From the IMG/VR virus record IMGVR_UViG_3300021406_000010, positions 102,489 to 166,488 of that record: DNA of 64,000 bases; one strand, 5' to 3'. This DNA comes from a virus. The position numbers were made by a program, and so were the translations under genes. The notes under the pieces were generated by a model. That model was given only the letters and a program-made list of their open reading frames with translations. It ran no database searches and had not been told where the DNA came from. Positions within the stretch are counted from its first letter, which is position 1. Each line of letters starts with the position of its first letter. Shown in pieces: positions 6,150 to 40,178 of the stretch.

Positions 6150-6840
6150 TGGCAGCGCAGCCTACGGCACCGAAGGTTACCGGCTAGTAGGAGAAGGGCC
6201 AGTGCAGCGAGTGCACGGGACCTGGCGTTAAGGCTCCCATTGAAAGCTAAAGAACGTAAAACATAACTACTACTACTATTTTTTAATTATTTAGTATTTG
6301 TATTTACGTATTTAAGTCTTAGGAGGAGCTACGCGGGGGTCGTCCCCTCCCCCCTTTGGATGGCTACGCGGGTCGGCCCCCTCCCCCTCTGCCCACTGGA
6401 GGGCTACGCGGTCGTCAGTGCACATCGAACGGGGCCAGTGCACATCGCCTCTTTTTCGATTCATGCTATTGGCCAGGTGCAGTGCACATCGCCAGTTTCG
6501 CCAGTGCAGATAGCGTTTTTCGATTCATGTACCTGAGCTGGTATTAGTGCACAAGTGCAGTTCGATTGGCCGTTTTGGGTTCCCTCACGCGAGGCCCCGG
6601 ATGGTAGTGACTAATACGCTACTTACCGTGGTCAAGTCTCATGCTGGGTATGGCAAGCACGTTGCTAGCTATTGCAAGCAATTTGAGTCTCCCCCGGGGC
6701 GATGCGTTCGCCAGGCGCCAAAATGGCGATTTTATCTGCACTTGTGCACTATCCGCACTTCAGCAGAACTTTTCGAGCGTCAGTTCTGCACTTTCATCTG
6801 CACTGGAAGTGCACTGGCCCTTTCCCGATGTGCACTGGCA
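6150..6840. other. origin-like iteron element A
   Basis: AT-rich tract with CTA repeats at about 6240-6320; GCTACGCGG x3; AGTGCA repeats 6417-6560 and mirror TGCACT repeats 6737-6836; homologous to 39581-40178. Confidence 0.6.
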
Positions 6841-6867
6841 AGCGCATGCCGTGGTCGTGCAGTGACC

Positions 6868-8688
6868 CTAAGCGAATGCGCCGAGAGTGTTGATGGCCTT
6901 CGTGACCAGGACGACACCGCCGAGGACGGGCAGCGCTGCGGCGGCCATGGTCACGGGAAGCGGGTTCCCGGCGGAGTCGACGTACGAGGCGATCGTCACG
7001 CCCCCCAGGACCTGCTGGATCCCGACGTCGTAGTTGTTCGCTGCGGCGCCCGTGAAGCCGGGGTAGTCGGCCCCGGTGAGGAACCGGCAGGCGGTGATGC
7101 CGGGGGTGCCCTCCACTGCCTGCAGGACGCTGGACGGGTACACGACCGCCCCGAACCCGATGGCCCCGAGCCAGGAGGACAGCGCCTGGGTGACGGCCGC
7201 CTGGGCGGTCGCGGGAGTGGCTCCCGGGTCGTAGACGACCGCCAGGCTGAACTGCAGCTGCAGCTGGATGGCCTGGTGGGCCTGCACGTCGGTGCCCGCC
7301 AGCCGCCAGTTCTCCAGCTGCTTCTGGATGGCGGCGGGGACGTCGTTGTAGGTGTAGCCGTCGCTGATCGTCAGGGGGGTCCCGCCGGGGGGCTGCATCC
7401 CGGCGGCCCACTCCAGGCCGAAGTCGGAGTAGGGGGACCAGCCGAAGGCCCCCGTCCGGTGGGCCACCTGGTAGGCATAGCTGACGCCGCCCGCGACGCT
7501 GCCCAGCGGCTGCGCCAGGGTGGCCTGCCCGTAGGTGACCCCGTTGACGACCATCACCGGCGGGACGGTGAGGACCGGGCCCCATGGCAGGGCGATGAAG
7601 GCGTTCCCGGGGGCGGGGGAGCTGCCGTCCGGCCGGGTGAAGGACCCGGCGTACCAGGGGGAGGAGCCGGAGGCGGAGAAGACGGTGGCGGCCGAGAACC
7701 TCAGCGACGCGGCGGCGGCCATGGGGCGCTGCCCGGAGCACCAGACGTCGACCCGGCTGTAGATCCCCTGCGCCGGGGAGTTGCGGGAGTAGGCGTCCAT
7801 GTACAGGAAGCTGACGTCGATCAGCTGCCCCTGCGGGAAGTAGGAGGCGTCCACCACCTGCACCGAGGGCGGGCTCGCGGCGGAGTTCCAGGTGTACTGC
7901 AGGCCCGGGGCGGCCACGTCCCCGTTGTCGATGTCGCGGCCCACCACCTGGCCCGCCGGGTAGGTGAACTGGGCGTCCGGGATGGTGGTGGCGGCCTGGC
8001 CGCCGGACACCTGCAGCTGCTCCCGGTACCTGGTGGCGCCGTCGATGACGTTGGCGGCGGTGCACTCCGGGTCGGCGAGGGCGATCCCGAGGAACATCTG
8101 GCTGGTGCCGGCCATCGACCGGAACGCGGTGGCGCTCCAGCGGGCCTGCAGCTGGGCGTCGGCCTCCTGGCTCGCGCCGCCGGACAGCGCGTTCAGGTTG
8201 GTGACCCCCGAGACCTCGGAAACCGGGGTGAGCAGCTGGGTGAGGGACCCGGCCGCCGCGTTCCCGGCGGGGCCTGCGATCACCGCCTGGACCGGGAGGG
8301 TGACTGACAGCGCCCCCGGGTTGAGGATCCCGGCGGTGACCGTCTGGATCACCACGGTGCCGTCGGCGGTGGCCACCTGGGTGGCGACCGGGATGGTGAC
8401 GACGTCGGTCGCGGTGCCGCGCGTGAAGGTGACGGTGCCGTAGGAGCGGGCGGCCGGGTACCGGGACAGGCCGAACAGCTGGACGAAGGCGTCGAGGTCC
8501 GCGCCCGCCTTCGAGGTGACGTCGTAGCTGTAAGCGAGCATTTGCTGGTCTATGGTGGCTGATGACACCGACGCGGCCACCACGTCGATGATCTTGCGGA
8601 CCACGCTGCCCAGGGAGGTGTCCAGGTCGGGCACGCTGGCGGCGAGCACCGCGATCATCTGGGACGCGACGTCAGCCTGGCTGGCCAC
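6868..8688 (-). CDS. baseplate J-like protein
   Basis: 606 aa; GADLDAFVQLFGLSRYPA, GPAGNAAAG, VTNLNALSGGASQEADAQLQAR motifs typical of Baseplate_J. Confidence 0.9.
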   Translation of the reverse strand: MASQADVASQMIAVLAASVPDLDTSLGSVVRKIIDVVAASVSSATIDQQMLAYSYDVTSKAGADLDAFVQLFGLSRYPAARSYGTVTFTRGTATDVVTIPVATQVATADGTVVIQTVTAGILNPGALSVTLPVQAVIAGPAGNAAAGSLTQLLTPVSEVSGVTNLNALSGGASQEADAQLQARWSATAFRSMAGTSQMFLGIALADPECTAANVIDGATRYREQLQVSGGQAATTIPDAQFTYPAGQVVGRDIDNGDVAAPGLQYTWNSAASPPSVQVVDASYFPQGQLIDVSFLYMDAYSRNSPAQGIYSRVDVWCSGQRPMAAAASLRFSAATVFSASGSSPWYAGSFTRPDGSSPAPGNAFIALPWGPVLTVPPVMVVNGVTYGQATLAQPLGSVAGGVSYAYQVAHRTGAFGWSPYSDFGLEWAAGMQPPGGTPLTISDGYTYNDVPAAIQKQLENWRLAGTDVQAHQAIQLQLQFSLAVVYDPGATPATAQAAVTQALSSWLGAIGFGAVVYPSSVLQAVEGTPGITACRFLTGADYPGFTGAAANNYDVGIQQVLGGVTIASYVDSAGNPLPVTMAAAALPVLGGVVLVTKAINTLGAFA

Positions 8689-8705
8689 CTGGCGTCACCC
8701 GCCCG

Positions 8706-9140
8706 TCACGGGGAGACCGTCCGGACGGCCGACAGGCGCTGGCCGCCCTGGGTGGTGAGGGAGACGGCCACCGCGATCGCGTCCGGCCGGGAGCCGGGCG
8801 CGGCGGTGACCGAGTCGACGGAGGCGATGACGTCGTCGGCGGCCAGCTGGCTGCGAGTGCCCGCCATCGCGGTGGCGGTGATCACCTGCTGCTGGGCCGC
8901 CATCAGCTGCGCCAGCACCCGGGACGCCTCGGCGGTGACCATCGCCCCGGTCCCGGCCAGCTGGGGGGAGCCGAGCATCCCGGTGAGGGCGGATCCCCAC
9001 TGCGGGTGGAACGGGTCGCTGCCGTACGGCTCGGACAGCGCCGTGGCCACCCGCTGGCGGAGGTAGTCGGTGCCGGTGACGGTGGCCAGGTCGCCGCCGG
9101 ACACGAGCAGGTCGCCCCCCACGATGGCGAGGTCCCTCAC
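8706..9140 (-). CDS. baseplate wedge subunit (gp25-like)
   Basis: 144 aa; GDL...LRQRVATAL.EPYGSDPFHPQWGS motif; RBS GGGAGG. Confidence 0.8.
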   Translation of the reverse strand: MRDLAIVGGDLLVSGGDLATVTGTDYLRQRVATALSEPYGSDPFHPQWGSALTGMLGSPQLAGTGAMVTAEASRVLAQLMAAQQQVITATAMAGTRSQLAADDVIASVDSVTAAPGSRPDAIAVAVSLTTQGGQRLSAVRTVSP

Positions 9141-9171
9141 GAGGGCATCACCTCCCAGGCCTTCCGTGCCC

Positions 9172-9486
9172 CTATGACGGCAGCGGGCCGATCACCTGCG
9201 CCTGGCTGCCGGCATAGACGTAGCCGGAAGCCGGCTGCGGGTAGCTTCCCGGCGGCAGGCCAGTGGTATGGATGAGGTACTCCGCGTTGCCGTCCGCCAC
9301 CGCTGACAAGACGGTCGGCGCCTCGGCCTCAGTCCAGCCGGAAGCCGCCGCCAGCTCCGCAGCGGACAGGCCGCTCGTCCACTCGTACAGCTTATTGATG
9401 GTCACGAGGGCGTTGCGATGCGCCAGCAGCGCCTGCTGGATGAGGGTCATCACCTGCGCCTGCGACAGGCCGGTGTTGATCGCCAA
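9172..9486 (-). CDS. hypothetical protein (possible tail-fibre chaperone)
   Basis: 104 aa, AGGAGG RBS before TTG, directly after fibre gene. Confidence 0.6.
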   Translation of the reverse strand: MAINTGLSQAQVMTLIQQALLAHRNALVTINKLYEWTSGLSAAELAAASGWTEAEAPTVLSAVADGNAEYLIHTTGLPPGSYPQPASGYVYAGSQAQVIGPLPS

Positions 9487-9494
9487 GGGTCCTC

Positions 9495-12400
9495 CTAGAA
9501 GTCGAGCGGATAGGTGCCGAAGATGCGGACGGTGTCTCCTGCCGTCGCGTCGTAGACGTGCACGACCCCGGTGCTGAGCATCTCGCAGACCAGCGGGATG
9601 CCGAGGAACGGCGACCCGGCGTTCTGCACGCAGCCTAGCGGCTGGTTGGAGGCCGGCCAGTAGGCGGCCGGCAGCGCCACGGTTATGTTCGAGTTATTCG
9701 CGACTCCGGAGGGGACGTTGAGGATTCCGGAGACCATGACCGTGTTGTCGGACCTGTACTTGTACTTGAAGGTCCCCGTCCAGCTGTTCGCGAGGGAGAA
9801 CGAGTGGGGCACCTCGGGCACCGCCGGGATGACGCCCGGCTGGAAGGCGGTGACCGGCCCGGTGTACCCGGCCGCGTAGGCGTTGCCGCCCGGGTCGGTG
9901 CCCGCCTGCGGCGACAGGGCGCACTCCAGGACTGAGCTGGACACGTAGGTGATCTTCACCTGGCCGTCGGCGCCGGATCCTCCGATTGGCTGGGAGCTGG
10001 ACCCGGAAGTGCCGGTCACCGTGACGGAGGCCGAGCTCGCTCCCCCGGCGAAGTACCCGTACTGGGTGAGGTCCGGCTCGGAGGTGGACGGGCCGGTCAT
10101 CAGCGACTTGGCCGCGCCGGACTTCAGGGCCGCCCCCAGGCCGGGCGGGTTGATGACCTTGGTCGCGCCCTCGGTGATGCCCGCCTGGTACTGGCCGTGC
10201 TTGTCGCCTGAGCCGAGCGAGGAAATGGTCCCGGGGAACGACGTCCGGTTCGACCACCCGAAGGTGATCGTCATGCCGCTGCCGTACCAGGAGTGCTGGT
10301 TGGTGATCTTCACCGACGCGGACGTGATGGTCACCCCGGACAGGTCCGACTGGACCGATGAGGGCAGCAGCCAGAACCCGAACTGGTTGCCGGCCGGAGC
10401 GCCGCTCGACGCCCCCTGGTAGACGGAGCCGCCGGCGTTCCGCTGGGCCCCGCCGATGTCGGTGCCGTAGTACGACGCTGAGCTGCTGGCGTTGTAGGTC
10501 CTGCTGAACGGCGAGGTAGTAGTGGACTGCCCGGAGCCGCCGCCGCCGCCGCCAGGGCCGCTGCCGCTGGCCCCGCTTGCCGCGCTGCCGCCGCTCGCCC
10601 CGCCTGCGCCGCCGCCGCCCGCGCCCGCAGCCCCGCCAGGGCCGTTGTAGACGCCGTTGCCGCCCGCCCCGGAGGGGCCCCCGGAGCCGCCGCCGGAGCC
10701 GCCGTCCGCGTGGCCGCCGGTAACTCCCATGCCGCTGCCGCCGTCGTGGTGGATGGTGTTGGCCGACCCGGTGCCCCCGGCCCCGCCCGTCCCCTGGGCG
10801 GGTGAGGCGTCTCCCCCGTTGGCGTAGACCCCGGTCCCGTCGAAGAAGGTGTCGCCGCCGCCCTGCCCGTCGGAGTTGCCGGTGTACGCGCCGTTGCCGC
10901 CGTTGCCGACGGTGTAGCTGTAGGTGGTGGCCCCGGTCGGGTCGAGGGGGTAGCTCGGCTCGCAGGCGTACTCGCCGGCTCCCCCGCCGTCCTGGCCGGT
11001 AGTGCCGTTTCCGTGGTTGGCCCCGGCGGCGGCGCCCCAGCACTCGATTTTCCCGGACGGGATGCCGGGCGGGGGCGTGAAGGAGTAGGTTCCGGCGGCG
11101 GGCTGGGTGATGGTCGTGGTGGTGGTCGTGTAGGCGTAGAGCACGCCGCCGACGGTGTCGAAGGTGATGTCGGTCTCCGTCATCGTCCCGCCGGAGATGG
11201 CGGTCGCGGCGATGGTGGAGGCGGAGATGGACCCGTCCTGGAAGCTTCCGCTGGCGATGGAGCAGGAGTTGACGTTCAGCCCGGAGATGCCGCCCTGCGC
11301 GACGAAGAGGCCGGCGGGGTAGGGGTTCCCCTGGCCGTCGGCGCCGGCCGCAGCCGACCACGACCCGATGAGGTTCCCCAGTGCCGGGGTGCCGGAGTAG
11401 ACGAGGATCTCGCCGGAGGTGCCGAAGGCGATGAACTGGCCGCCCTCGATGGTGGTGCCGTCGACCACGCCCGCCAGGACGATGCCCGCCGCGATCTGCT
11501 CGGCGGTGATGGTCCCGGCGGCGATCTGCGCGGCCGTGATGGTTCCCGCCGCGATCTGCGCGGCCGTGATGGTATTGGCGGCGATGAGCGCGGCGGTCAC
11601 CGACCCGGCCGCGATGGACTGGGTGCCGAACTGGAACGGCACCCAGTTGGAGCCGTTCCAGGTGGTCAGGGCGAAGCCCTGGTTGCCGTTGAACCACAGG
11701 TCGCCGGCGGCCGGGGACGAGGGCTGGGAGAACCCGACGCTGGTGGTGACGCCGCCGATGTCGGAGGCGGTGAAGTCGACCTGCCCGGGGGTGATGCCCG
11801 CGTTGGCGGCCAGCTGCAGGGCGGTGAGGCTGCCCGCCGCGATGGCCCGGGAGCCGAACTGCAGGAGCCGCCACCCGCCCCCGTCCCATACCGACACCGA
11901 GTTGCCCTGGGCCGGGTTGATCCAGATGTCGCCCAGGACCGGGGCCGGCGGCTGCGACGTCCCGGTGATCACGGAGGTGCCCCCGAGGTCGGAAGCGGTG
12001 ACGGACAGCTGGCCGGCGGTGATCCCGGCGGCCGGGGCGAGCTGCGCGCCGGTGATGGTGCCGGGTGCTATCTTGGCCGCCGTGACGGCCCGGTCGGCGA
12101 TGGCGTTAGTGCCGACCTGCAGCGGCACCCACCGGGACCCGGACCAGCTTGTGAGGGCGTTGCCCTGCGCGGCGTTCACCCACAGGTCCCCGGGCGCCGG
12201 GGCTGCGGGCGCGGCGGCGGAGGCCGTCACGGCGGGCGCGGCGGCGGCGGGGAGGTCTGCCGGGGAGGCAGCGGCGAACGCGGCGAACGTCCACGTGCCC
12301 AGGTCCTGGGTGATGATCCACATCTCGCCCGGGGCCGGGGGCGGCGCCTTGCTGCGCTGCATCAGCATCGTCACGGCGACCTGGGTGCCCTGCCGGTCGA

Positions 12401-12509
12401 CGGTGATGGCGGTGGCCCCGTCGGCGGATATCGACCGGACGGTGACCAGCTTGGCGGACAGGCCGACGCTGTGGGTGGCCGGGTTGAGCGGCTGGCGGGG
12501 AGCGGCCAT
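9495..12509 (-). CDS. tail spike/fibre protein with glycine-rich domain
   Basis: Start at ATG 12509 (TGATG overlap), 1004 aa; three GD(L/I)W.N...W.G..W units, ITAAQIAAGT repeats, Gly-rich region. Confidence 0.8.
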   Translation of the reverse strand: MAAPRQPLNPATHSVGLSAKLVTVRSISADGATAITVDRQGTQVAVTMLMQRSKAPPPAPGEMWIITQDLGTWTFAAFAAASPADLPAAAAPAVTASAAAPAAPAPGDLWVNAAQGNALTSWSGSRWVPLQVGTNAIADRAVTAAKIAPGTITGAQLAPAAGITAGQLSVTASDLGGTSVITGTSQPPAPVLGDIWINPAQGNSVSVWDGGGWRLLQFGSRAIAAGSLTALQLAANAGITPGQVDFTASDIGGVTTSVGFSQPSSPAAGDLWFNGNQGFALTTWNGSNWVPFQFGTQSIAAGSVTAALIAANTITAAQIAAGTITAAQIAAGTITAEQIAAGIVLAGVVDGTTIEGGQFIAFGTSGEILVYSGTPALGNLIGSWSAAAGADGQGNPYPAGLFVAQGGISGLNVNSCSIASGSFQDGSISASTIAATAISGGTMTETDITFDTVGGVLYAYTTTTTTITQPAAGTYSFTPPPGIPSGKIECWGAAAGANHGNGTTGQDGGGAGEYACEPSYPLDPTGATTYSYTVGNGGNGAYTGNSDGQGGGDTFFDGTGVYANGGDASPAQGTGGAGGTGSANTIHHDGGSGMGVTGGHADGGSGGGSGGPSGAGGNGVYNGPGGAAGAGGGGAGGASGGSAASGASGSGPGGGGGGSGQSTTTSPFSRTYNASSSASYYGTDIGGAQRNAGGSVYQGASSGAPAGNQFGFWLLPSSVQSDLSGVTITSASVKITNQHSWYGSGMTITFGWSNRTSFPGTISSLGSGDKHGQYQAGITEGATKVINPPGLGAALKSGAAKSLMTGPSTSEPDLTQYGYFAGGASSASVTVTGTSGSSSQPIGGSGADGQVKITYVSSSVLECALSPQAGTDPGGNAYAAGYTGPVTAFQPGVIPAVPEVPHSFSLANSWTGTFKYKYRSDNTVMVSGILNVPSGVANNSNITVALPAAYWPASNQPLGCVQNAGSPFLGIPLVCEMLSTGVVHVYDATAGDTVRIFGTYPLDF
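11489..11585 (-). repeat. 30-bp coding tandem repeat (ITAAQIAAGT)
   Basis: gcgatctgc...gtgatggt repeated three times at 30-bp period. Confidence 0.8.
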
Positions 12510-15136
12510 CAGGGGCCGGCCGTCCCTGTCCCGGGCAGCGGCAGGTTGGTGCCCGCCGTGAGGCCCCCCGCTACCGGCAGGCCGATGAGCTGGCCGCCGG
12601 AGTTGTTGCCGCTGCCGGGCAGCCGGGCGGGGGCGGCGATGTTCACCTGGGTGGTGAAGGACCCGCCGGGGCCGGTCTGCCAGGTGTGGGTGACGGTGGT
12701 GACGTAGGCCTGGAAGCCGTAGGCGGGGACCTGCAGCAGCATGCCGGGCCACAGCTCCGGCATGAAGGTGAGGGCGACGTCGGAGTTGTACTGGTAGGCC
12801 CAGCTCCTCATGAACAGGAACAGGGCGGAGAAGAACTCGCCCGACGGGCCGATGACCCCCGGCATCTCCTCCAGGTCTGGGCGGGCGCCGAACCGGCCGT
12901 AGACGTAGCTGATGAACTTCTGCGCCTGGGCGGCGGTCGGCTCCAGGCCGAACAGGGCGTACATGATGGCGGGGATGTCGATGGTCGCGATGCCGGTGGT
13001 GGACAGGGCGTAGATGACGTCGAGGGGCAGCGTCTGGCCGGTGGCGGACAGGGTGATCCCGGACGCGGTGCCGCTGCCCAGGTCGACCTGCTGGGCGGGC
13101 GGCGCGACCACGTACTGGTGGGTGACCAGGTTGGTGTCGTCCCACGTGACGCTGAAGTCGATCAGCTCGATCGGCTCGACCTGCATGATGGCGGCGGTGC
13201 CCCAGATCCCGTAGTAGTCGGGGAACCACGCGATCAGGTCCCCGTTGGGGGCCGAGCAGTAGCTCCGCATGCAGGACCCGAGCAGGTTGCGGATGTAGGG
13301 CAGCAGCGGCTGGTCGTTGAGCAGGACGCGCGGCCCGGTGAACACGGCGGAAATGGCGGCCGACTCGGAGTCGAACGTCGGGAACCAGGGACTGGGGCCG
13401 AACAGCTTGTCGAACTGGTCGTTCGGGTTGTACCACGGCTGGGTGGAGGACGGGGATACTTGCAGCGCCTGCCCGCTGGCGGTCGCGGAGACCGCGCCGC
13501 CGGAGGTGAGGGCGCCGCCCGTCGGCACTGACTTGAACGCGGCGACGGTGCCGTTGTAGGCCGAGTAGTCGAACCCCGGGGCCAGCCCGGCGCACGTCCA
13601 GTAGGAGGCGGCGTTCCCGACGACCCCGGCGAATGTCCCGGTGTGGTGGGCGCCGACCGTGCTGCTGCCGGTCCCGGTGCTGATCTCGACGTGGCTGGAC
13701 GCGCCGGGGCCGCCGAGGAACATCAGCGCGCCGGGGATGTTCATCCCCGCCTGGGCGGACACGATCTGCCCTGACGACTGGCACCAGGCGCTCTGCTCGG
13801 CGGCTGTGCGAGGGCACCCGCCGAGGCTGCCGAGGGCGTGGAAGACGCACCACTGGACGAACGAGGAGCAGTCGAGCTGGGTGGGGACCGCCACGTTGGG
13901 GGCGGAGTCGCCGCCCAGCTGGTAGGGGATGTGCGGGTCGGACTGGACCAGCCCGAGGGCGGTGCCGAGCAGCTGGGTGCAGCTGGCCTTGCCCGCCTTG
14001 GCGTTGGAGGCGAGCGGGGCGAAGCCGGGGGAGTTGCCGAGCGAGCTGGCTCCCTGGGCATTGGACAGGACGCCGACGATCTGGGTGGCCATGTTCAGCC
14101 ACTGGTCGTAGTACGCCTGCCCCTGGGCGGCGGTGTTGAACGCCACCTGGACCATGTTCGCGACCACGCCGGGGTCGATCGACGCCCGGTTGCCGATCTT
14201 CAGCTCCACCGAGAAGAACTTCTGCGTGGCGTAGGTGACGTTGGTGACCTGCGCCACCGTCCCCCACCCGGCGGCCGGCCGCTGCTGGAACAGGCCGTAG
14301 GCCCCGTCAATGTTGGGGGTCGGGATGTTGGTGAGGGTCGACTCCCCCATGGCGGTCTCGATGCCGATGACCGCGTCCCGGGTGGTGCCGCCCATCTGCA
14401 GCGCCGTGTTGTAGATCAGCACCGCGAGGGAGGCCTGGGTGGCGTCGAGGCTGAACCCGGCGTACGTCCCGGCCTTCAGCGCCCCCGACGGGACGGTCCC
14501 GCCGCCGCCCCCGGGCAGCGAGCCGCCAACCGACCCGCCAACCGTCCCGGCCGCCCCGAGGGTGGCGTAGAACTGCTGGGCGAGGGCGTCGGCCGCCGCC
14601 GTGTCCGCCTTGACCGCCTGGGCGATCTTGTACGCCCACGCGGTCCAGCCCTGCGGGATCCCGGCGATGTGGACCTTCTCGGCCGGCCAGCCGGTGACGT
14701 TCTGCAGGATGGCCAGCACCGCCGCCGTGACGCCCCCGTCGTCGGGGTTCTTGGCGCTCGCCATCGCCTGGGCGACCATGTTCTGCGAGGCGGCGAGGCC
14801 GGGGTCCCAGAACCAGTACTGCAGCCTCTTCAGCGAGCACGACGCGGTCAGCTGCACCGACGTGGGCCAGGCGGTGACCAGCGGGACCGAGTTCAGGTAG
14901 CCGGTGAAGACCCTGAGCCAGGTGATCCGCTTCATCATGACGATGATCCGGTCGTTGGGAACGAATATCCCGGTGTACTTCCGGAACGGGTTCTGCAGGG
15001 TGAAGGCGAAGGTCGACACCCCGTCGGAGCGGCGCACCATGGTCCCCTGGGTGACGTCGTCGCTGATGTCGATGATCCCGTTGGCCTGGGTGAGGATGTA
15101 GATCTTGCAGGCTGGCGAATACATCAGGACCGCCAC
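12509..15136 (-). CDS. baseplate hub / tail-associated peptidoglycan hydrolase (lytic transglycosylase-like + NlpC/P60)
   Basis: GGAGGGG RBS before GTG 15136; AMGESTLTN...YGLFQQRP lysozyme-like motif; PYQLGG..LDCSSFVQW..HVEI NlpC/P60 motif. Confidence 0.85.
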   Translation of the reverse strand: MAVLMYSPACKIYILTQANGIIDISDDVTQGTMVRRSDGVSTFAFTLQNPFRKYTGIFVPNDRIIVMMKRITWLRVFTGYLNSVPLVTAWPTSVQLTASCSLKRLQYWFWDPGLAASQNMVAQAMASAKNPDDGGVTAAVLAILQNVTGWPAEKVHIAGIPQGWTAWAYKIAQAVKADTAAADALAQQFYATLGAAGTVGGSVGGSLPGGGGGTVPSGALKAGTYAGFSLDATQASLAVLIYNTALQMGGTTRDAVIGIETAMGESTLTNIPTPNIDGAYGLFQQRPAAGWGTVAQVTNVTYATQKFFSVELKIGNRASIDPGVVANMVQVAFNTAAQGQAYYDQWLNMATQIVGVLSNAQGASSLGNSPGFAPLASNAKAGKASCTQLLGTALGLVQSDPHIPYQLGGDSAPNVAVPTQLDCSSFVQWCVFHALGSLGGCPRTAAEQSAWCQSSGQIVSAQAGMNIPGALMFLGGPGASSHVEISTGTGSSTVGAHHTGTFAGVVGNAASYWTCAGLAPGFDYSAYNGTVAAFKSVPTGGALTSGGAVSATASGQALQVSPSSTQPWYNPNDQFDKLFGPSPWFPTFDSESAAISAVFTGPRVLLNDQPLLPYIRNLLGSCMRSYCSAPNGDLIAWFPDYYGIWGTAAIMQVEPIELIDFSVTWDDTNLVTHQYVVAPPAQQVDLGSGTASGITLSATGQTLPLDVIYALSTTGIATIDIPAIMYALFGLEPTAAQAQKFISYVYGRFGARPDLEEMPGVIGPSGEFFSALFLFMRSWAYQYNSDVALTFMPELWPGMLLQVPAYGFQAYVTTVTHTWQTGPGGSFTTQVNIAAPARLPGSGNNSGGQLIGLPVAGGLTAGTNLPLPGTGTAGP

Positions 15137-29142: not shown

Positions 29143-29145
29143 CGG

Positions 29146-31012: not shown

Positions 31013-31100
31013 CTGTCATTACCTCCCTGTAGGATGCGCCCCCTGCGGGGCACGCTGGCCAAGCCTAGCGAGAGGGGGGCATGGCGGGCGACGGCGAGTT

Positions 31101-32069: not shown

Positions 32070-32249
32070 TCATGCCCACCCCGCGTCCAGCTCGAGCATG
32101 GTGAGGATGATCGTGTCACGGTCCAGGTGCCCGGCCTCGCGGTAGAGCCGGGACCGGCGCTCCAGCTCCTCCGGCGGCAGTGGCTTCACGAACGGGCCGA
32201 GGGCGCGCAGGCAGTCCTCGGGGGAGGGGCCGTCATCCGGCGTGGTCAT
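32070..32249 (-). CDS. hypothetical protein
   Basis: Small ORF in coupled accessory operon. Confidence 0.5.
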   Translation of the reverse strand: MTTPDDGPSPEDCLRALGPFVKPLPPEELERRSRLYREAGHLDRDTIILTMLELDAGWA

Positions 32250-32481
32250 CGCACAGCCCCTGGACACACTTGTGGCGGGGGTCGCCGGGCGGCAGCAGGG
32301 CGAGCCGCATGACCTCCGCCCAGCCTTCGGGCGCCGGCTGGTCGGCTGCCGACACCCTCCGCCAGGACAGGGCCGCCACGCAGGTCACGTCGTTGCACAC
32401 CCGCAACCCGGCCCGGTGCTTGTCCGGGTCCAGTACCCACTCCGCGTCGGGAGTGTCGGGCAGCTCAACCTCGATGATCAT
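32233..32481 (-). CDS. hypothetical protein
   Basis: GGAGG RBS, ATGA coupling. Confidence 0.55.
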   Translation of the reverse strand: MIIEVELPDTPDAEWVLDPDKHRAGLRVCNDVTCVAALSWRRVSAADQPAPEGWAEVMRLALLPPGDPRHKCVQGLCDDHAG

Positions 32482-32774
32482 CTTGCCTCCTGCGGCATCA
32501 GCCGACGGTACTCGGCCTCGTGCAGCATTTCCAGCGTCGGGTAGCCGAACGCCTCGATGTTCATGTCCCATAGCGCGATCCTGTCCTGGAGCCGCTTCAG
32601 GGCCGACAGGCACGGCGGGCATAGCCTGAACGTCCCGGCGTTCGCGCCGGGCCACAGGTCCCACTCCGGCCTGGGGCGGGTCGCGGTGACCTCGCAGCAG
32701 TCCCGGCCATCGCAGGTCCCGGGGTGCCCCCATGCATCGCAGGCGCACTGGCAGAGGCGCTCAGGCGCCGACAC
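32478..32774 (-). CDS. Cys-rich hypothetical protein
   Basis: 98 aa, CQCAC...CPPC. Confidence 0.6.
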   Translation of the reverse strand: MSAPERLCQCACDAWGHPGTCDGRDCCEVTATRPRPEWDLWPGANAGTFRLCPPCLSALKRLQDRIALWDMNIEAFGYPTLEMLHEAEYRRLMPQEAR

Positions 32775-33069
32775 TTACGGTCACCGCCCTCCGGTAGCCG
32801 TGGGCGGACGGCGGGCAGTTCATGTCGGGCCTGACCGTCAGCCAGAAGCCGCCGTCCATCTCGGCCCCGAAAGCGCAGCAGCCCTCGCCGTCCCAGCCGT
32901 GGCAGAGCCACCAGTCCCCGGCCGCCTCATAGCGCATCGGGCCGTGCACGGCGCAGCGCGGGACCGGCAGGACGCGCACGCTGCCAGCGGCCAGGACGGG
33001 ATCGGGCGGGATGGGCTTGGCGAAGGCTGCATGCACCTCAGGGCTGGCAAAGAAGTCGGCATCTGGCAC
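32761..33069 (-). CDS. hypothetical protein (C..HG.M...W.C.GWDGEGC family; paralog of 52556..52786)
   Basis: GWDGEGC motif shared with 52556..52786. Confidence 0.65.
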   Translation of the reverse strand: MPDADFFASPEVHAAFAKPIPPDPVLAAGSVRVLPVPRCAVHGPMRYEAAGDWWLCHGWDGEGCCAFGAEMDGGFWLTVRPDMNCPPSAHGYRRAVTVSVGA

Positions 33070-33108
33070 CCTTCGATCTTGCCATGCTGCCGTCCGGGAC
33101 AGCTCCTG

Positions 33109-34016
33109 TCAGTACCAGGTCTCCAGCGCGCCCACATACGTGGACGCGCCGCAACACTCCCTGCTATTCTAGTCGGGGCGTATCTGCCATAACTGCCGCC
33201 GCTCACTAGTACACGAGGATTGCCGGCCATGATATGGCGGATCTTGAAGACGTCCAGCAGCCCCTTGAGATCGGCTTCCTCGTCCTTGATGACCTGCCGC
33301 CACCGGTCGGCGTAGTCGCGGCGGTCCAGCCGGGCCACCGGCGGGCCGGACATCATCGGCTGCTCGGTGTAGGACCGGACCAGCTGCCGGCAGCACTCCG
33401 TGTAGGACCAGCTGGCCAGCAGGCCGCCCCACAGCGCGACCGGGTACATCGGGCCCGAGATCCCGTCGAGGGTGTAGTTGCTCCACGGCTGGGCGGAGGC
33501 GTTGATCTTGGACAGCGCGATGGCCGCCATCTGGGCCATCCGGCCCCGGGACCAGTGCGCCTGGAAGTAGGACTGCAGGTTGGGGCCGCCGCCCGCGCTG
33601 TCGAACGCGTCCCGGAACCGGGACCACACCTGGGCCTCCAGGAAGTCCTGCATGGCGGGCGGCAGCGCGTCCCAGGACGGGTTGGCGGGGCCGATTTCCA
33701 GGTAGGACGCGTACTGCTGCGGCACTCCGCCGATCGCGTAGGACCAGTCCAGCTCCGCGTATCCGACATACTGCGTCTGGGCGCTGGTGGGGGTGATGAC
33801 GTAGGTGCCGGACCCCTCGCGGGTCGCGGCGGCCGACCCCAGCCCGGTGACCGTCCCGTCGGGGTTGCCCAGCACCAGCTGGCCGGCGACCGCAGAGCCG
33901 TCCGGGTCGGCGAGGACGCCGCCGATGTAGGTGAGCAGGGTCAGCGCGGGAGCGGAGAACTGGGAGACGTACGTCCGCTCGCGCCAGTCGATCAGGCCAG
34001 GGTCGGTGACCGTCAC
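33109..34016 (-). CDS. head-tail connector/neck protein; frame break just before natural stop
   Basis: GTGA-coupled start; RFRDAFDS.GGGPNL...RLDRRDY.DRW motifs; ends RW-Y-stop if 8 nt are removed. Confidence 0.7.
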
Positions 34017-34672
34017 AGGGAGTTTCCGGACGTGTACGCCATCAGCAGGGCAATGACCTTCATGCCGGTCACGCCGATCGCCGTCGGGTAACTGGACGAC
34101 ACGGTGACCGTGCCGCCGATCTTGTGCTGGCCGGGCAGGACGGACGGGATGACGGCCATCGACACGGCCTCTATTCCCAGGCTGAGGCCTGAGTCCCCGG
34201 GAGTGCCGGCGAAGCGGATCCCCTCGGGGAAGCCGCCCATCTGCTGGTTGACGCCGTCGAAGCTGATCTGCTGGTTGGCGCCCTGCGTCTTGTTGTTGGG
34301 GCAGGTGTAGGAGCCGGTCAGCCAGATGGCCAGCGAGGACGCCCTGGGGGTGCTGACGGTGAGGACGTTGTAGGAGCCGGACGACCCGGGGCTGACGGAG
34401 GAGTTGACGAGGGCGCCGCCGGCGAAGCCGGGGGCGGAGTCCCGCAGGTCGGCCCATCCGGTCCCGGTCCAGTAGGTGAGCTGCTTGGCGTCGGTGAGGA
34501 AGGCGAGCCGCCCCGCCTGGGCCGCCCCCCACGCAGGACGGGTGGCTGACGTGCAGATGAACACGCCGGGGTTGGCGTCGAGGATGCCCAGGTTGCCGGT
34601 GAAGTCCGACAGCTGGAAGGGGTCCGTGGGCTGGTTGAGCTTCAGGCCGAGGACCGTGCTGAATGTGGCGAT
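34013..34672 (-). CDS. fibre-like virion protein with probable ATC start
   Basis: AGGAGG-5nt-ATC; N-terminus ATFSTVLGLKLNQPTDPF...GNLGILDA resembles common fibre N-terminal motif. Confidence 0.7.
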   Translation of the reverse strand: MATFSTVLGLKLNQPTDPFQLSDFTGNLGILDANPGVFICTSATRPAWGAAQAGRLAFLTDAKQLTYWTGTGWADLRDSAPGFAGGALVNSSVSPGSSGSYNVLTVSTPRASSLAIWLTGSYTCPNNKTQGANQQISFDGVNQQMGGFPEGIRFAGTPGDSGLSLGIEAVSMAVIPSVLPGQHKIGGTVTVSSSYPTAIGVTGMKVIALLMAYTSGNSL

Positions 34673-34673
34673 G

Positions 34674-37019
34674 TCAGCCTCCTAGCCCGGTTCCTGCCTT
34701 GATGGTGCCTGCTGGGGTGTATATCGGGTTCACGGTATTTGCCGGGTCGAGGGAGCCGGTGCCGGTCGTGATGGACCCCTCGTGTCCGGGCTGCGCCTCG
34801 TTGTAGTTCAGCGGCACCACGTACCCCGAGTAGGCGCTCCACGGGCCGAGGCCCAGCTGGTTGCCCGCCGCCACCCGGAACCGGTACCCCTGGCTGTAGG
34901 GGGTGGTGCCGTCCGGGCGGTAGATGACCGGCGTGTTGGGGGTCAGGCCCTGCGTGAAGGTCGCCGATATGGAGGCCGGGTCCGCCCCCCACCAGTACTC
35001 GGCCACGATGGAGTCCCCCGCCGCCGCGTTCACGGACCCGGCGGCGAGGGCGATCTGGTACTGCGCCCACGGGCCGGTGCCCACCTGGGCGATGGTGTAG
35101 TCGTACCCGTACTCCAGCACCTGCGCGTCGGCCTGCAAGGGGTCGGCCTCGCCGCCGGCGATCTCGCCGCTGGCGAGGACCGACTGGGCAGACGAGGTGA
35201 GGTCACGGACGACCACCTGGCCGGGCGGGGTGATGACGCCGGACTTGCTGGTGGTCGCCAGGGTGGTGTTCAGGGCGGGGGGCGCGGCGCCCGTCGAGGT
35301 GGGCGGCGCGGTGAGGGTGAGGTTCGTCGCGATGGCCGTCGGCGATCCTGCTGCCTGCTGCCGGGTGTAGGTGCTGCCGCCGACCTGGGTGACGTAGGCG
35401 TACCAGCCGGTAGCCGTGCCGCTGGCGGCCGGGGAGGTGATGACCATGTTGTCGGTGGCCGTCACCGTGACCGAGGTGGACGCCGAGCCGACCGACTCCC
35501 CGTTGGCGTTCACGTAGGTGACGATCACCTTGTACACGCCGCCGGCCAGGGTGGACCCGGAACCGGTGTTGCCGGTGACAGTGGGGGCCGCCGGGGCGGC
35601 GATGGCGGCGGCGAGCAGGGTGAGGGCGTCAGCCTGGTACGTGGGCTGGCCGGTGACCGACCCGCCGGACGGGGACGGCTGGCCGTAGTTGGCGGGCTGC
35701 CCGGTGGCGGGCACCCACATGGTGCCAAGGTCCTGGCACTGCAACAGGTAGTACTGCACCGGGGCCAGCCCGGCGGGCGGCTGCCAGGTGACCGTCGCGC
35801 CCCGGTTGACCGCCACCGCGCTCGTCATGACGGGGGCGCCCGGCACCGAGGACGGCGCGTTGGAGTCCCAGTAGGTGGCGTCGCCCCAGGAGTAGGCGAT
35901 GGACACGCTATTGCCGCTGGCGAAGTGGGCCGCCACGATGGGCGTGACGTACGCGACGGTGGTAGGGCCGTTCCCGGCCGTGGTCACGGTGTAGTCGGTG
36001 CCCAGCACCATCAGGGTGGACGTAGTGGTGTTGGTCACCACGATGGTGCTCGCGACGACGCCCTGCTGGGACAGGTAGTCGGGCACCCCGGGGAGGTCGG
36101 CGGCGAAGGCGTCAACCTGGGACTGCAGGGCCGTCGGGGCGGCGGGAGCCCCCGAGTAGCTGGTGTCGGCGACGATGGCCGGGTAGGCCGAGTTGAGCAG
36201 CGTCGGGGTGGCGTTGACCTGGTTGCCGAGGATGTCGGTCAGCGTCGTGTCCTTGACCCCCGCCGCGACCCCCGCCGACGGGGCGCGGTACGCGTTGGGG
36301 GACGGGAACATCGCCGGGACGAGGTTCCCCCCGGCCCCGGCGATGGTGTCCAGGGTCCCCGACAGGTAGTTGGTCGAGGGGGCGAAGGTCTCCGGCAGCT
36401 GGCCGCCGTAGGCGGACTCGGTGTCGGGCGCCCCAAGTGGCCAGCCGGTCGTCCCGGGGACGGTGTCGGTGACGGCGTACTCGCTGCCCGGGGCGCCGGT
36501 CTCGCTGGAGGACTGGGCGCCGGCGGCAGGGTCGGTCAGCGACCCGCCGGCGGCCTGGTCCCCGATGCCCGCCACGGTGGAGCCGGTGGTCGGGTCGACG
36601 GACGCGAACCCGGCGGTCCCGGGGGGAGCGGAGGTGGTCCCGGCGGGCTGGCCCTGGAAGTCCCCGGCCGCGTACCCGGGGTCGGGAATGGTGCCGTACC
36701 TGTAGGTGACCCGGCAGGAGTCGCCGCTGGACGCGCCGCCGGTGGAGACCCAGGTGACGGAGTAGGTGAGCGTCTCCCCCGCTCCGCTGGCGGTGAGCTT
36801 GTAGTCGGTGCCGAGGGCAAGGGCCTTGGAGGCGGTCACGTCGTAGACGGCGATGACGTCCGCCGTCGGGGTCGCCCCGGCCGCCTCCTGGGACGGGTAG
36901 GAGGTGATCGCCGTCTTGCTCAGGGGGGACGGCGTCGCCGTCAGCGTGATGACGTCGGTCTGCGTGACGACGCCCTCGGCGACCACGCCGAAGAAGTCGG
37001 GAGTGGAAGGGGTGGTCAT
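34674..37019 (-). CDS. large virion protein with FN3/Ig-like domains
   Basis: 781 aa; VPGAP..ATVTWQPP and YRFRVAAGN.LG.GPWS FN3 motifs; LGTDY repeats. Confidence 0.8.
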   Translation of the reverse strand: MTTPSTPDFFGVVAEGVVTQTDVITLTATPSPLSKTAITSYPSQEAAGATPTADVIAVYDVTASKALALGTDYKLTASGAGETLTYSVTWVSTGGASSGDSCRVTYRYGTIPDPGYAAGDFQGQPAGTTSAPPGTAGFASVDPTTGSTVAGIGDQAAGGSLTDPAAGAQSSSETGAPGSEYAVTDTVPGTTGWPLGAPDTESAYGGQLPETFAPSTNYLSGTLDTIAGAGGNLVPAMFPSPNAYRAPSAGVAAGVKDTTLTDILGNQVNATPTLLNSAYPAIVADTSYSGAPAAPTALQSQVDAFAADLPGVPDYLSQQGVVASTIVVTNTTTSTLMVLGTDYTVTTAGNGPTTVAYVTPIVAAHFASGNSVSIAYSWGDATYWDSNAPSSVPGAPVMTSAVAVNRGATVTWQPPAGLAPVQYYLLQCQDLGTMWVPATGQPANYGQPSPSGGSVTGQPTYQADALTLLAAAIAAPAAPTVTGNTGSGSTLAGGVYKVIVTYVNANGESVGSASTSVTVTATDNMVITSPAASGTATGWYAYVTQVGGSTYTRQQAAGSPTAIATNLTLTAPPTSTGAAPPALNTTLATTSKSGVITPPGQVVVRDLTSSAQSVLASGEIAGGEADPLQADAQVLEYGYDYTIAQVGTGPWAQYQIALAAGSVNAAAGDSIVAEYWWGADPASISATFTQGLTPNTPVIYRPDGTTPYSQGYRFRVAAGNQLGLGPWSAYSGYVVPLNYNEAQPGHEGSITTGTGSLDPANTVNPIYTPAGTIKAGTGLGG

Positions 37020-37441
37020 CCTGCGCTCCGGTCGGCTGTCTCGTCAACGGTCACCATGGGGCCGAGGCTGGCCGCCAGGGCGCGGAACGGCGCGCTGTGG
37101 TCGCGCGTCCTGACCTCGCCGGTGCGCGGGTCGACCTCCATTCCCGCCTCTTCCAGGGCGAGGCGGGCGCGCTCGGCGGCGGCGGCCACCCGGTTGCGGT
37201 CGCCGTCGGGGTCCCCCCGGTTCACGGTGAGGCCCGGGGAGGTCTGCACGATGTTGGCGGACACCGCCTCGTCGAGGGGGTCCATCCCGCGAAGCGCCCA
37301 CGCCAGGTCCCCGGCCCGCGCGATGTCGAACGCCGAGGTGACGCCGCTCAGCTGGGCGTGCGGGGCGTCTGACCCGGCGGTGTCCGAGGTGTCGTAGGTG
37401 CCCGTCATCGCCGACAGGTCGCGGGCGCCGTGGTAGGGCAC
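37016..37441 (-). CDS. hypothetical virion-region protein
   Basis: 141 aa, between coupled genes. Confidence 0.6.
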   Translation of the reverse strand: MPYHGARDLSAMTGTYDTSDTAGSDAPHAQLSGVTSAFDIARAGDLAWALRGMDPLDEAVSANIVQTSPGLTVNRGDPDGDRNRVAAAAERARLALEEAGMEVDPRTGEVRTRDHSAPFRALAASLGPMVTVDETADRSAG

Positions 37442-37442
37442 G

Positions 37443-37967
37443 TCAGGCCTCGAGCACCCAGGGGCCGTCGCCCCTCTTGACGCAGCGGGCGGACAGCTGC
37501 CGGTGCCGGTCGCACAGCGGCGGCCTGCCCGCCTGCTCCAGCTCCTTGACCGGCACCTGCTCGCCGCACGCCAGGCCGTCGCGGGCGCCGGGGCCGATGC
37601 ACATGGCCACGATGATGTCGGCCGCGTGCGGGGCCTCCATGGACTCCCGGGCGGCCGTCTCCTGGGCCGCGTTCCGGCGCCGGAACGCGTCCGTCTGCTT
37701 GGCCATGGCCGCGACCACCACCGGGTGGTCATCGCCCTCCACCACCTCGAAGATGCCCTGCCGCAGCGCCCTGGCGAACTGCGGGGTGCGCAGCAGCGCC
37801 TCCGGGATCGGCTGGACGTCCTCCCCGTCGGGGTGCCCGCGCCCCTGGAAGAGGATCTCGTAGTTACGGCGCGCGTCGGCCGCGATGGTGGTGGGGCCGG
37901 ACATCATGTTGCGGCACATGACGGTCGCCGTGTCCAGGAACCCGGGCGGGGCGTAATCGGTAGTCAC
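37443..37967 (-). CDS. conserved head-region protein
   Basis: 174 aa; RN..GPT...W/F.G.G.P.GED.Q motif; C-terminal C..C..PPLC..H. Confidence 0.7.
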   Translation of the reverse strand: MTTDYAPPGFLDTATVMCRNMMSGPTTIAADARRNYEILFQGRGHPDGEDVQPIPEALLRTPQFARALRQGIFEVVEGDDHPVVVAAMAKQTDAFRRRNAAQETAARESMEAPHAADIIVAMCIGPGARDGLACGEQVPVKELEQAGRPPLCDRHRQLSARCVKRGDGPWVLEA

Positions 37968-37997
37968 TGGGCCTCCTGCCCCTTCCGGGGCAGCGGG

Positions 37998-38858
37998 TCA
38001 GCACCCGGGGGAGGCGAACAGGAACAGCCAGCGGCCCCGCGCGGCCGAGTAGCGGAACACCAGCTGGTCGGCGACCCCCGGGGTGGCCGACAGCACCGGG
38101 TGCCCCTGGGTGCCGAAGGAGTAGCCGCCAGCCCCGGTGGTGTTCACCGACGGCGCGGCGGCCCCGGTCCAGGTTGGCGGGGCCGCCAGGATCAGCGGGA
38201 CCCCGGGGAGGGACGGCGAGCCTGGTGGCTGCTGCCGGGTGTAGGACGATCCCCCGGCCTGCGTCGAGTAGGCGTACCAGCCGGCGGCGGAGTACGCGGC
38301 GGGCGGCGGCGGGACGGTGATCACCGACGCGGCGCCGGTGGTGGTGACCGGGGCCGAGACCGACGCGGCGGTCTCCCCGGTGGCGTTCACGGTGGTCACC
38401 GCGAGCCGGTAGGTGCCCGCCGCGACCGTGCCGCCCGACGGCGCGAAGGAGGGCGCGGGCGCGGGCGGGACGGCGAGCGGGCCGGGGAAGACCGCCGTCC
38501 AGGGGCCGCCGGAGAGGGGCTGGCCCAGCTCGAAGGAGGCCCACTGCCCGTCCGACGGGCCGGCGGGGAGGCCCATCACCCGGTTCCCGCCAAGGGTCAC
38601 CCGAAAGTCATTGCCGAGGAGCGCGCTCACCGCGATCACCGGGGCGTCGGCCAGCGGGACCACCGCCGGGGAGGCCGCCCCGGACATCGCGCCGCCCGCC
38701 AGCCGCAGGTACCGGGCGTCCAGCTGCGGCAGGCTCAGATCCCCCGCCTGGACCGCCGCGACCAGCCAGGAAAGGGCGTCGGAGATCTGGGCGTGGGCCT
38801 GGACGTGCCCGGTCTGCCCGGCGGCGGGGGTGTCGGGCGGGATCAGGGGTGTCGTCAC
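37998..38858 (-). CDS. accessory virion protein with inserted Ig/FN3-like module
   Basis: 286 aa; AGGAGG RBS; LDARYLRLAGGAMSG and GNDFRVTLGGNR motifs. Confidence 0.7.
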   Translation of the reverse strand: MTTPLIPPDTPAAGQTGHVQAHAQISDALSWLVAAVQAGDLSLPQLDARYLRLAGGAMSGAASPAVVPLADAPVIAVSALLGNDFRVTLGGNRVMGLPAGPSDGQWASFELGQPLSGGPWTAVFPGPLAVPPAPAPSFAPSGGTVAAGTYRLAVTTVNATGETAASVSAPVTTTGAASVITVPPPPAAYSAAGWYAYSTQAGGSSYTRQQPPGSPSLPGVPLILAAPPTWTGAAAPSVNTTGAGGYSFGTQGHPVLSATPGVADQLVFRYSAARGRWLFLFASPGC

Positions 38859-38903
38859 GCTGGCCTCCTGCCCCTTCCGGGCAGCGCCAGGGAGGGGGAA
38901 GGG

Positions 38904-39093
38904 CTAACCGGCGGCGCGGGGATTCCCCTAGCAGCCTCCGGACCTCCGTCTCCCGGTACCGCCGGTGCCCTCCCAGCGTGCGGATGGACGTGAGCTTCCC
39001 GGCCTTCGCCCACCGCGTGACCGTCTTGGGGTCGACGCGGAACATCGTGGCAACCTCGGCGGGGGTCAGCAGCGGCTCGGCGATGGGCGGCAC
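38904..39093 (-). CDS. bldC: BldC family MerR-like DNA-binding protein (3' end affected by probable 1-nt indel)
   Basis: EPLLTPAEVATMFRVDPKTVTRWAKAGKLTSIRTLGGHRRYRETEVR is nearly identical to actinomycete BldC. Confidence 0.9.
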
Positions 39094-39169
39094 GGGGGTC
39101 CTTCCGGAGGGCGCGGGGGCCTGGCGGGGAGATTCTATGACTTTCCGGGGCAACTGGCAGCCAATTGCC

Positions 39170-39502
39170 CTATCCCGGGATAACGGGCGGCATGGTGATG
39201 ACGCCTGACTGGGTCGTGAACGGCAGGTCGAGGGCGACCACGACCATCTGCACCAGGACGTAGGACTGCCGGGTGGCCGCGTCCAGGTCGTCCCAGCGGG
39301 CGACCAGCGGGCGGGTTGCCCGCCACGCATCGTGGACGTCCCGGGGCAGCAGGCCGCGCCGGGCGCCGGCCACCGCATGGCGGTACCACTCCTGCTGGGC
39401 GGCTGACAGCAGCGCCCAGCAGGAGTCACGGGGCAGCCCTGACTCGGAGCGAAACTGGGACACGGCAGCGTGGCATATGCGCGCGAGTGGTTCGGTACTG
39501 AT
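39170..39502 (-). CDS. RyR-domain-like phage protein (start uncertain)
   Basis: LARICHAA...W...HDAW...PLVARWDDL motif. Confidence 0.55.
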   Translation of the reverse strand: MSTEPLARICHAAVSQFRSESGLPRDSCWALLSAAQQEWYRHAVAGARRGLLPRDVHDAWRATRPLVARWDDLDAATRQSYVLVQMVVVALDLPFTTQSGVITMPPVIPG

Positions 39503-39580
39503 GAGAATTCCCCGAGTGGCGGTAGTGACTGGCAGCACTCCCAGGAGGCCATCCCATGGTACTAAGCCTGCCGACGGCCG

Positions 39581-40178
39581 TGCCCAGTGCAGAACGGAGC
39601 ACGGCCAGTGCAGTGCCAGTGCAGTTGAAAGTGCAGAACTAGATGTCGAATAAACGATCCTGGCTGCGGATAGTGCACAAGTGCAGATCGAAGCCTGTTT
39701 CCGGCAACGCGGAGCGTCCTGCCCACCGCCGTCCACAGGGTGTGGATAACTTGCTAACGCTAGCTAGCAAAGCGCTAGCCATAATGATAGACGTCCCCGC
39801 GTAGGCTCTCCCGTGGACGACCAGGCCCATGCGCGTGGACGCCTGGCCGGCTCAGCGAGGAGGGCGGCCTGGGGAGATCGCGCGGGGCAACATGGCGAAA
39901 GCATCTGCACTTGTGCACTTTCCGCAGGTCAGGGGCACTTTCGATCTGCACTCAGATCTGCACTCAGATCTGCACTGGCGCTCCGGGGATGTGCACTGGG
40001 GTTCCCCGCGTAGGACTGCCCAGGACCAAGAACATAAAGCTAATGATAATAATTTAAAAGTTGTAGTAGTAGTTAGTTATTAGTAGTTGTATAGAGGCTG
40101 TTTGTTCGACTTCACGCGCACTTAGTAGGCTAACTTGTTACTAGCGGGTAACCTACGCTGCCGTAACTAGCGCTGACG
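39581..40178. other. origin-like iteron element B (inverted homolog of A)
   Basis: AGTGCA arm 39586-39686, TGCACT arm 39906-39997, AT-rich TAG tract about 40030-40092. Confidence 0.6.
39729..39749. promoter_or_regulatory. DnaA-box pair
   Basis: CCGTCCACA-GGG-TGTGGATAA; second box is the perfect complement of TTATCCACA. Confidence 0.6.

Follow-up and report, generated by a model that had tools for sequence, protein, structure and literature searches.

Candidate origins for a phage PrimPol-D5 primase-helicase, detached from its gene and present in two copies

The virus record IMGVR_UViG_3300021406_000010 (166,488 bp, circular, ends overlapping by 144 bp, ~72% GC) was analyzed with a focus on bases 102,489-166,488, a stretch of 64,000 nucleotides referred to here as the window, in whose positions two repeat-rich elements in opposite orientation, A (6150-6840) and B (39581-40178), are given throughout. 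The genome encodes baseplate J, tail sheath, an HK97-fold capsid protein, a DnaE polymerase and an 803-aa PrimPol-D5 superfamily 3 (SF3) primase-helicase. It represents a high-GC myovirus, probably with an actinobacterial host, which is suggested by the high GC, the presence of a BldC gene and the 'Actinomycetia' label on a 63% identical primase. The best matches of the primase among the cultured phages listed were 29-35% identical, and no close cultured phage was found. Here, A and B are assessed as candidate replication origins for this primase-helicase.

Architecture of elements A and B

The sequence-only reading had described A and B as mirror-armed iteron elements, and both were confirmed as such. 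Each consists in turn of a flank motif, an AT block and CTACGCGG, followed by one arm, a spacer and the mirror arm; the features are as follows (window positions and strand, unless genome positions are given).

6163-6190 (+): outer flank motif of A with the near-palindrome GTTAC-N6-GTA(G/A), common to B; a similar motif sits at the same place in most relatives' elements
6201-6216 (+): two extra iterons of A, from flank motif to AT block
6230-6320 (unstranded): AT-rich block of A, 25% GC, (CTA)n at 6265-6278; the genome's least stable 80 bp and candidate melt or priming site
6329-6411 (+): three CTACGCGG motifs of A at 6329, 6364 and 6404; relatives mostly have one here
6417-6560 (+): AT-side arm of A, six AGTGCA at 6417, 6437, 6481, 6503, 6546 and 6554, rearranged by a 64-bp duplication
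6649-6671 (+): 23-bp spacer motif of A, exclusive to A and B among 17 genomes
6737-6836 (-): distal arm of A, six perfect iterons in the full clade grammar 21/11/12/42/8, 0 mismatches
38899-39093 (-): BldC-family helix-turn-helix gene ~500 bp beyond the distal arm of B (NCBIfam NF033787, 107 bits, cut-off 77)
39586-39685 (+): distal arm of B, six AGTGCA at 39586, 39607, 39618, 39630, 39672 and 39680, 0 mismatches
39732-39749 (+): perfect DnaA box plus partial inverted box in the spacer of B, accessory
39761-39804 (-): 23-bp motif of B shared with A (39761-39783) and central CTACGCGG (39797-39804), the latter conserved in relatives
39906-39997 (-): AT-side arm of B, spacing 21/12/12/33/8
40006-40013 (-): CTACGCGG of B, between arm and AT block
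40030-40100 (unstranded): AT-rich block of B, 27% GC, TAG/TAGTT repeats; the genome's second least stable 80 bp
40137-40167 (-): outer flank motif of B, perfect GTTAC-N6-GTAAC at 40137-40152
Genome 80772-80918 (L005:5772-5918): element C, one arm, outside the window, found by BLAST of A and B
Genome 80896-83307 (L005:5896-8307; -): PrimPol-D5 primase-helicase, 803 aa, proposed initiator

The reported 24-bp inverted identity is exact (6734-6757 is the reverse complement of 39665-39688), whereas five order-3 Markov shuffles of the window produced no inverted match of at least 20 bp. AGTGCA(C/G) occurs 36 times in the 1,460 bp of the elements versus 0.27 expected, an enrichment of ~130-fold. Phased spacings were likewise recovered in the distal arms of A (8/42/12/11/21) and B (21/11/12/42/8), each with six perfect iterons, and in the AT-side arm of B (8/33/12/12/21), whose long gap is 9 bp shorter than that of the distal arm. 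Both elements carry two mirrored six-iteron arms, but the AT-side arm of A is irregular (20/44/22/43/8) due to its 64-bp internal duplication. Of all 80-bp windows in the 166-kb genome, those of the AT blocks have the two lowest stabilities, with CTA/TAG repeats that are often mirrored on both strands, whereas the central spacers are not AT-rich (55% GC in A, 65% in B). All three CTACGCGG motifs of A lie ahead of its AT-side arm and none in its central spacer. Misassembly of A is unlikely because in an independent assembly (ENA; gene coordinates only, no DNA) the baseplate J gene is likewise separated from its neighbor by 761 bp. Separately, TGACCTG is a recurrent motif of the long gap between iterons, in the arms of most elements and in the distant D5 origins L102, L107 and G027, mainly at high-GC loci.

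A half-site at the primase-helicase gene

Relatives were collected as eight whole phage records with a 61-68% identical baseplate J and eight further records reached via the capsid gene; G009 repeats G004, and the distinct relatives with a full element are G001-G006, G008 and G013. Within the genome itself, a BLAST search for more copies found one, the single-armed element C, which lies outside the window 28 kb from A, overlaps the primase-helicase stop codon and has the same grammar as the distal arms. Such a one-armed site ends 14 primase genes of the clade, and when nine genomes (1.3 Mb) were searched for the grammar 21/11/12/42/8 with the motif left unfixed, full elements and primase-stop arms were the only matches. 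In each of the six genomes where both sites occur, the arm at the primase stop is most similar to that genome's own distant arms, a result given by 1 of 720 permutations. Iterons are 91% alike within genomes and 65% between them, versus 46% and 40% for spacers. Shared ancestry contributes to this likeness, yet the excess of iteron over spacer likeness within genomes argues for a shared binder rather than recent copying. The iteron varies among genomes (AGTGCA, GTGCGA, GTGCAC, TGTGCA and GGGGCGC), and the G013 variant GGGGCGC is found at both the gene-side and the distant site. Since C has kept the grammar and followed the iteron changes, it is not plain debris.

The initiator, considered unknown in the sequence-only reading, is very probably the phage's own PrimPol-D5 primase-helicase. 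DnaA, DnaB and ParB were not matched in this genome. The C-terminal 70 residues of the primase-helicase have a predicted winged-helix fold, with RFX and the P4 origin-binding domain as its nearest structural neighbors (RFX5, Z 8.0; RFX, Z 7.0; P4 1ka8, Z 6.7, rmsd 2.8, 77 aligned), and the model of the whole protein matches the SaPI5 PriRep structure 7ola (E 2.8e-14; SaPI, Staphylococcus aureus pathogenicity island). Searched by sequence against the PDB, the domain gave weak matches only (best, African swine fever virus C962R), and Foldseek returned no match for it at E < 0.001. SaPI origins start directly downstream of rep and are bound by the Rep C-terminal winged helix (PMC9371898), and the wing of PriRep5 reads iteron bases (bioRxiv 10.64898/2026.10.17.759575). 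Across the clade, a wing residue covaries with the first base of the iteron: N accompanies a strict 5' A in 9/9 cases (fraction 0.83-1.0), and G a relaxed first base (A fraction 0-0.71). The residue switched several times on a tree built without the domain, and three of four wing-iteron predictions written in advance held. A stricter rule, in which wing G means pyrimidine, was dropped as P0051 contradicts it, and only 'N strict, G relaxed' was retained.

Replacement of the replication protein offers a further comparison. Five complete relatives whose capsid protein is 84-86% identical encode DnaB but gave no D5 match, and neither arms nor AT block were found in the three DnaB-using relatives scanned, although these possibly form one lineage and therefore provide roughly one independent contrast. 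Overall, the half-site variant match, the wing covariation and the absence of the element alongside DnaB very probably tie the iterons to the primase-helicase.

Based on these comparisons, we propose that the phage's own PrimPol-D5 (SF3) primase-helicase uses A and B as replication origins. These would be of the SaPI/P4 type, detached from the gene and with an AT-rich melt site outside the arms (probability roughly 80%), in line with the iteron-type origin suggested from the sequence initially. Following what is known of SaPI PriRep5, one primase-helicase hexamer would dock per arm through its C-terminal winged helices, which would sit on iterons one helical turn apart with the wing reading the iteron, and two hexamers would load in opposite directions. 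The duplex would then open at or beside the AT block (external melting being the less certain step), where CTA/TAG repeats could serve as priming sites, with the PrimPol domain priming and the phage DnaE extending. The primase-helicase probably has a second binding site in C, which could be a crr-like partner as in P4, serve titration or feedback, or act as a roadblock separating the primase gene from the co-oriented genes that lead towards dnaE.

Several observations weigh against this proposal. Winged-helix Z-scores of 6.7-8.0 are in the range possible from a common fold alone, and among the four blind wing predictions, the one for P0051 (G, yet 71% A) did not hold when applied strictly. The AT block lies outside the arms, unlike in SaPI origins, and A may be partly disabled, given the rearrangement of its AT-side arm and the absence of CTACGCGG from its central spacer. 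GC skew gives no consistent support across relatives: the detrended maximum of this genome does fall on B (142,591), but the extremes of the five relatives with a distant element lie at least 7 kb from it, and skew at four-fold sites mostly has the same sign on both sides of the element.

History of the elements and rival explanations

One full element was found in each of eight relatives (G001-G006, G008 and G013), in the capsid-neck interval that corresponds to the position of B, which identifies B as the orthologous copy. In G001, G004 and G008 a neighboring gene block is inverted, so that the element adjoins the neck gene while facing the same inner genes; one end of the inverted block, between capsid and neck genes, lies just outside the origin flank motif. 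No element was present at the position of A, the baseplate J-I junction, in any of the eight relatives checked, where the two genes almost abut in four and are separated by other short inserts in four. A and B are mutual best matches and share the 23-bp motif found in no other of the 17 genomes, which makes A a lineage-specific duplicate. Its iterons are unchanged whereas its spacers have drifted away from those of B, which suggests that A is still under selection. The junction itself (window 6106-6868; L007-L014 about 11800-12400) is an insertion hotspot with unrelated inserts, one of them PadR-like by eye.

In the outgroups G007 and G027 a two-armed element lies directly behind the primase gene and none elsewhere, whereas G013 combines a decaying second arm at the gene with a distant full copy. 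The one-armed state forms a supported clade (97/91), although two long-branch outgroups leave the root of this first tree unsure. More broadly, 3+3 mirror hexamers lie behind the gene in 25/134 distant D5 loci versus 0/134 in-gene controls, and in each of six complete genomes no 80-bp stretch is less stable than the element's AT block. These distributions suggest an order of events in which a two-armed origin right behind the primase gene, as kept by the outgroups, was ancestral; in the clade, the full element, which lies 45-70 kb off in the capsid-neck interval beside bldC, would have left one co-evolving arm behind on the primase stop; and A would be a later duplicate of B's ancestor, inserted at the insertion-prone baseplate junction in this lineage only. 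Two further candidates were discarded: a free-standing AT-block module by the neck gene (none in G007; low-GC spots without arms and flank in G027) and TACGCG as a general D5-origin motif (48 versus 39 of 134 loci, not clearly enriched). In one DnaB-type relative, CTACTA...TAGTAG is mirrored around a T-rich center inside an initiator-like open reading frame (L388 about 9550-9650; G028:146,050-146,140), which may be that phage's origin and a hint that the AT-block motif predates the iteron arms.

As a design, the dual-origin system suggested in the sequence-only reading is not supported, because the five complete relatives with a distant element have one each and A is a private duplicate. Within our proposal, it is a serious though somewhat less than even possibility that the primase-helicase binds all arms but only B is an origin, with A a non-firing spare, a titrating decoy or a tolerated duplicate. 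Complete relatives manage with one distant element, the skew maximum falls on B, and A, besides its rearranged arm and missing central CTACGCGG, has no DnaA boxes and occupies a junction that holds unrelated inserts in other relatives. On the other hand, the coincidence with skew is not repeated in relatives, and despite spacer divergence A retains its six perfect, exactly spaced iterons, its flank motif and the genome's least stable window. The chance that A itself fires as an origin is about even.

A more elaborate version of our proposal is an obligatory two-part origin that is distant, melts externally, is licensed by looping to the half-site at the initiator gene and is gated by host or developmental inputs, with two such origins at once in this genome. 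We regard this as speculative and rather unlikely. Its gating inputs would be the outer flank, the optional DnaA boxes and the neighboring phage bldC. The flank approximates GTNAC-N6-GTNAC (perfect in B, G002 and G005, looser elsewhere), the sequence of the S. venezuelae GlnR box, and MtrA has been reported to bind GlnR boxes as well (PMC10704036); this GlnR/MtrA-like resemblance is a lead only. The distal arm has a bldC neighbor in eight core-clade genomes, the present one among them, and phage BldC could hold the host in vegetative growth. The window's bldC gene had been missed in the open reading frame listing, being nested in a longer open frame; bldC was found in ten related records but not in G007 or the three scanned DnaB-type genomes.

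A stem-loop or cruciform extruded as proposed for the pRN1 origin, or a structured RNA, could also account for mirrored repeats without duplex iterons, and the predicted folding of both elements does far exceed that of shuffled sequences (z -8.5 and -8.4). The PrimPol-SF3 protein of pRN1 needs a stem-loop (PMC4234260). However, a strong predicted fold follows from the mirrored iterons; opposite arms agree at iterons but only ~51% in inter-iteron spacer; and a one-armed copy, unable to form a stem, is kept in 14 primase loci. The RNA alternative raised in the sequence-only reading is unsupported; no Rfam match was obtained at gathering thresholds, although absence from Rfam does not exclude an RNA. 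Altogether, this explanation appears improbable.

The proximity of bldC to the distal arm (0.1-0.7 kb in this and seven other core-clade genomes) raises the question of whether the arms are operator arrays on which phage BldC polymerizes head-to-tail, making the block a transcription control region. BldC binds phased direct repeats (PMC5859096), but its consensus is AATT-N4-C rather than AGTGCA, G007 has arms without bldC, and in G013 and G027 bldC is far from the arms. With iteron changes tracking the primase wing and no sigma-70-type promoter found, we consider such a role for the arms distinctly improbable.

The sequence-only reading also pointed to DnaA, citing a box pair in B and TAG repeats as DnaA-trio unwinding elements. 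The TAG repeats are present and one box is perfect (39741-39749), but its inverted partner is only partial (39732-39738). Because three of the four perfect DnaA boxes in 2.25 Mb fall within elements (one in B, two in G013), the boxes appear real, and the G002 element has a one-mismatch box; even so, 7/10 elements, A included, lack a box within one mismatch. A DNA unwinding element is separated from the last DnaA box by ~2 helical turns (PMC5043019), whereas the B boxes are ~315 bp from the TAG repeats, no box in any element lies beside them, and CTA/TAG repeats are often mirror-arranged on both strands. DnaA boxes are thus an accessory feature of 3/10 candidate origins, DnaA-trio unwinding was not borne out, and an origin driven by host DnaA is very unlikely.

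Least likely of all is a reading in which a mobile or invertible 34-kb segment has A and B as its ends, or the two are sites paired for resolution or partition, or copies of a miniature inverted-repeat transposable element (MITE): their inverted orientation with outermost flank motifs and the insertion of A relative to relatives would fit, but no tyrosine integrase, resolvase or ParB was matched in the genome (PF00589, PF00239 and PF02195, with controls matched in 10-14 of 14 genomes; a host enzyme could still act), the A-B segment is not inverted (gene order and strand match G002, G006, G007 and G013, as the sequence-only reading had judged), the flanking repeat is only 6 bp and at chance level, without a convincing target-site duplication, and instead of many dispersed copies there is one per relative and none with DnaB-type replication. 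An exact arm pattern had no match in 185,579 prokaryote genomes, and of two exact DNA patterns scanned against viral contigs the first matched nothing and the second G002 only. A LexA-box reading of a GAAC..TTCG stretch in the arms was dropped, as it fits only one or two genomes.

Other features were noted in these genomes. Terminase_6N had no match across the whole genome, and the terminase of this phage (G000) was not located. The window encodes a flavohaemoglobin-like protein with globin, FAD- and NAD-binding domains (46831-47988, +). G002 has a TGTGA/TCACAC cluster between divergent Streptomyces-plasmid-like transfer genes, FtsK/TraB-like by eye (L043 about 7250-7500; G002:143,750-144,000), and in ~ten places of G025 (L374-L378) a repeated TTGTACTCC..AATCCTTGTAGTAG motif precedes genes, probably as a phage promoter or operator.

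Significance and comparison with known systems

To our knowledge, origins of large phages with D5-type primase-helicases have rarely been mapped. New here are the clade-wide candidate origin detached from its gene, with external AT block, conserved half-site and wing-iteron covariation, and a second full copy that is private to this genome. The clade provides an evolutionary series, from two arms at the gene, through a decaying arm with a distant copy and a half-site with a distant origin, to two distant candidate origins, together with a natural set of iteron variants and a candidate one-residue specificity switch in the wing. Two questions are thereby opened to testing, namely how a self-loading helicase reads and melts its origin and what role a gene-side iteron site (P4 crr-like) plays. 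Orthogonal iteron/initiator pairs could give compatible replicons for actinobacteria, and in the rather unlikely event that two such two-part origins operate at once, such a multi-origin theta design would be a rarity among tailed phages.

The closest parallels are with SaPI and other phage-inducible chromosomal islands, whose Rep/PriRep proteins (PMC9371898; PDB 7ola) are likewise fused primase-SF3 helicases with a C-terminal winged helix; the type also admits an MCM in place of the SF3 helicase. Their short iterons also form two opposed groups, with at least two per side required (six per arm in A and B), and start right at the gene end, as do those of element C and, in full two-armed form, those of outgroups G007 and G027. 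The PriRep5 iteron also has a TGCA core (bioRxiv 10.64898/2026.10.17.759575). SaPI origins have their AT region between the iteron groups and directly follow the rep gene. Here, the AT block is outside the arms, the central spacer has 55-65% GC, and only one arm is found at the gene, with A lying 28 kb and B 61 kb away from it. There are also two full copies, in a 166-kb phage with its own DnaE rather than a satellite island. SaPI Rep specifically binds and melts its cognate origin; the concerted iteron change and wing covariation may point, indirectly, to a similar specificity here.

Phage P4 has the same iteron beside its gene and at a distant origin (crr and ori1). Comparably, one primase-helicase here bears a predicted winged-helix origin-binding domain (1ka8 matched), and the gene and the distant candidate origin share their iteron in 6/6 genomes. 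In P4, the alpha protein binds origin repeats through its winged helix (PMC4234260, PMC2777425), and crr is required for replication (bioRxiv 10.64898/2026.03.30.715334). Unlike in P4, the primase domain is a PrimPol instead of a DnaG-type domain (PMC2777425, PMC4234260), the separation is far larger, and the gene-side site is a single arm that is not AT-rich. The domain order PrimPol-SF3-winged helix is also that of pRN1 ORF904, whose origin is downstream of the gene and movable (PMC4234260), but pRN1 has a stem-loop and no iterons, whereas iterons and their spacing are conserved here. TAG-like triplets beside an AT-rich tract and DnaA boxes in some copies recall bacterial oriC (PMC5043019); however, boxes are missing from most copies and far from the triplets, and the dominant repeats are not DnaA boxes. 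Overall, the putative origin departs from the SaPI type in two features, the central AT tract and its position, and from P4 in one, the type of primase.

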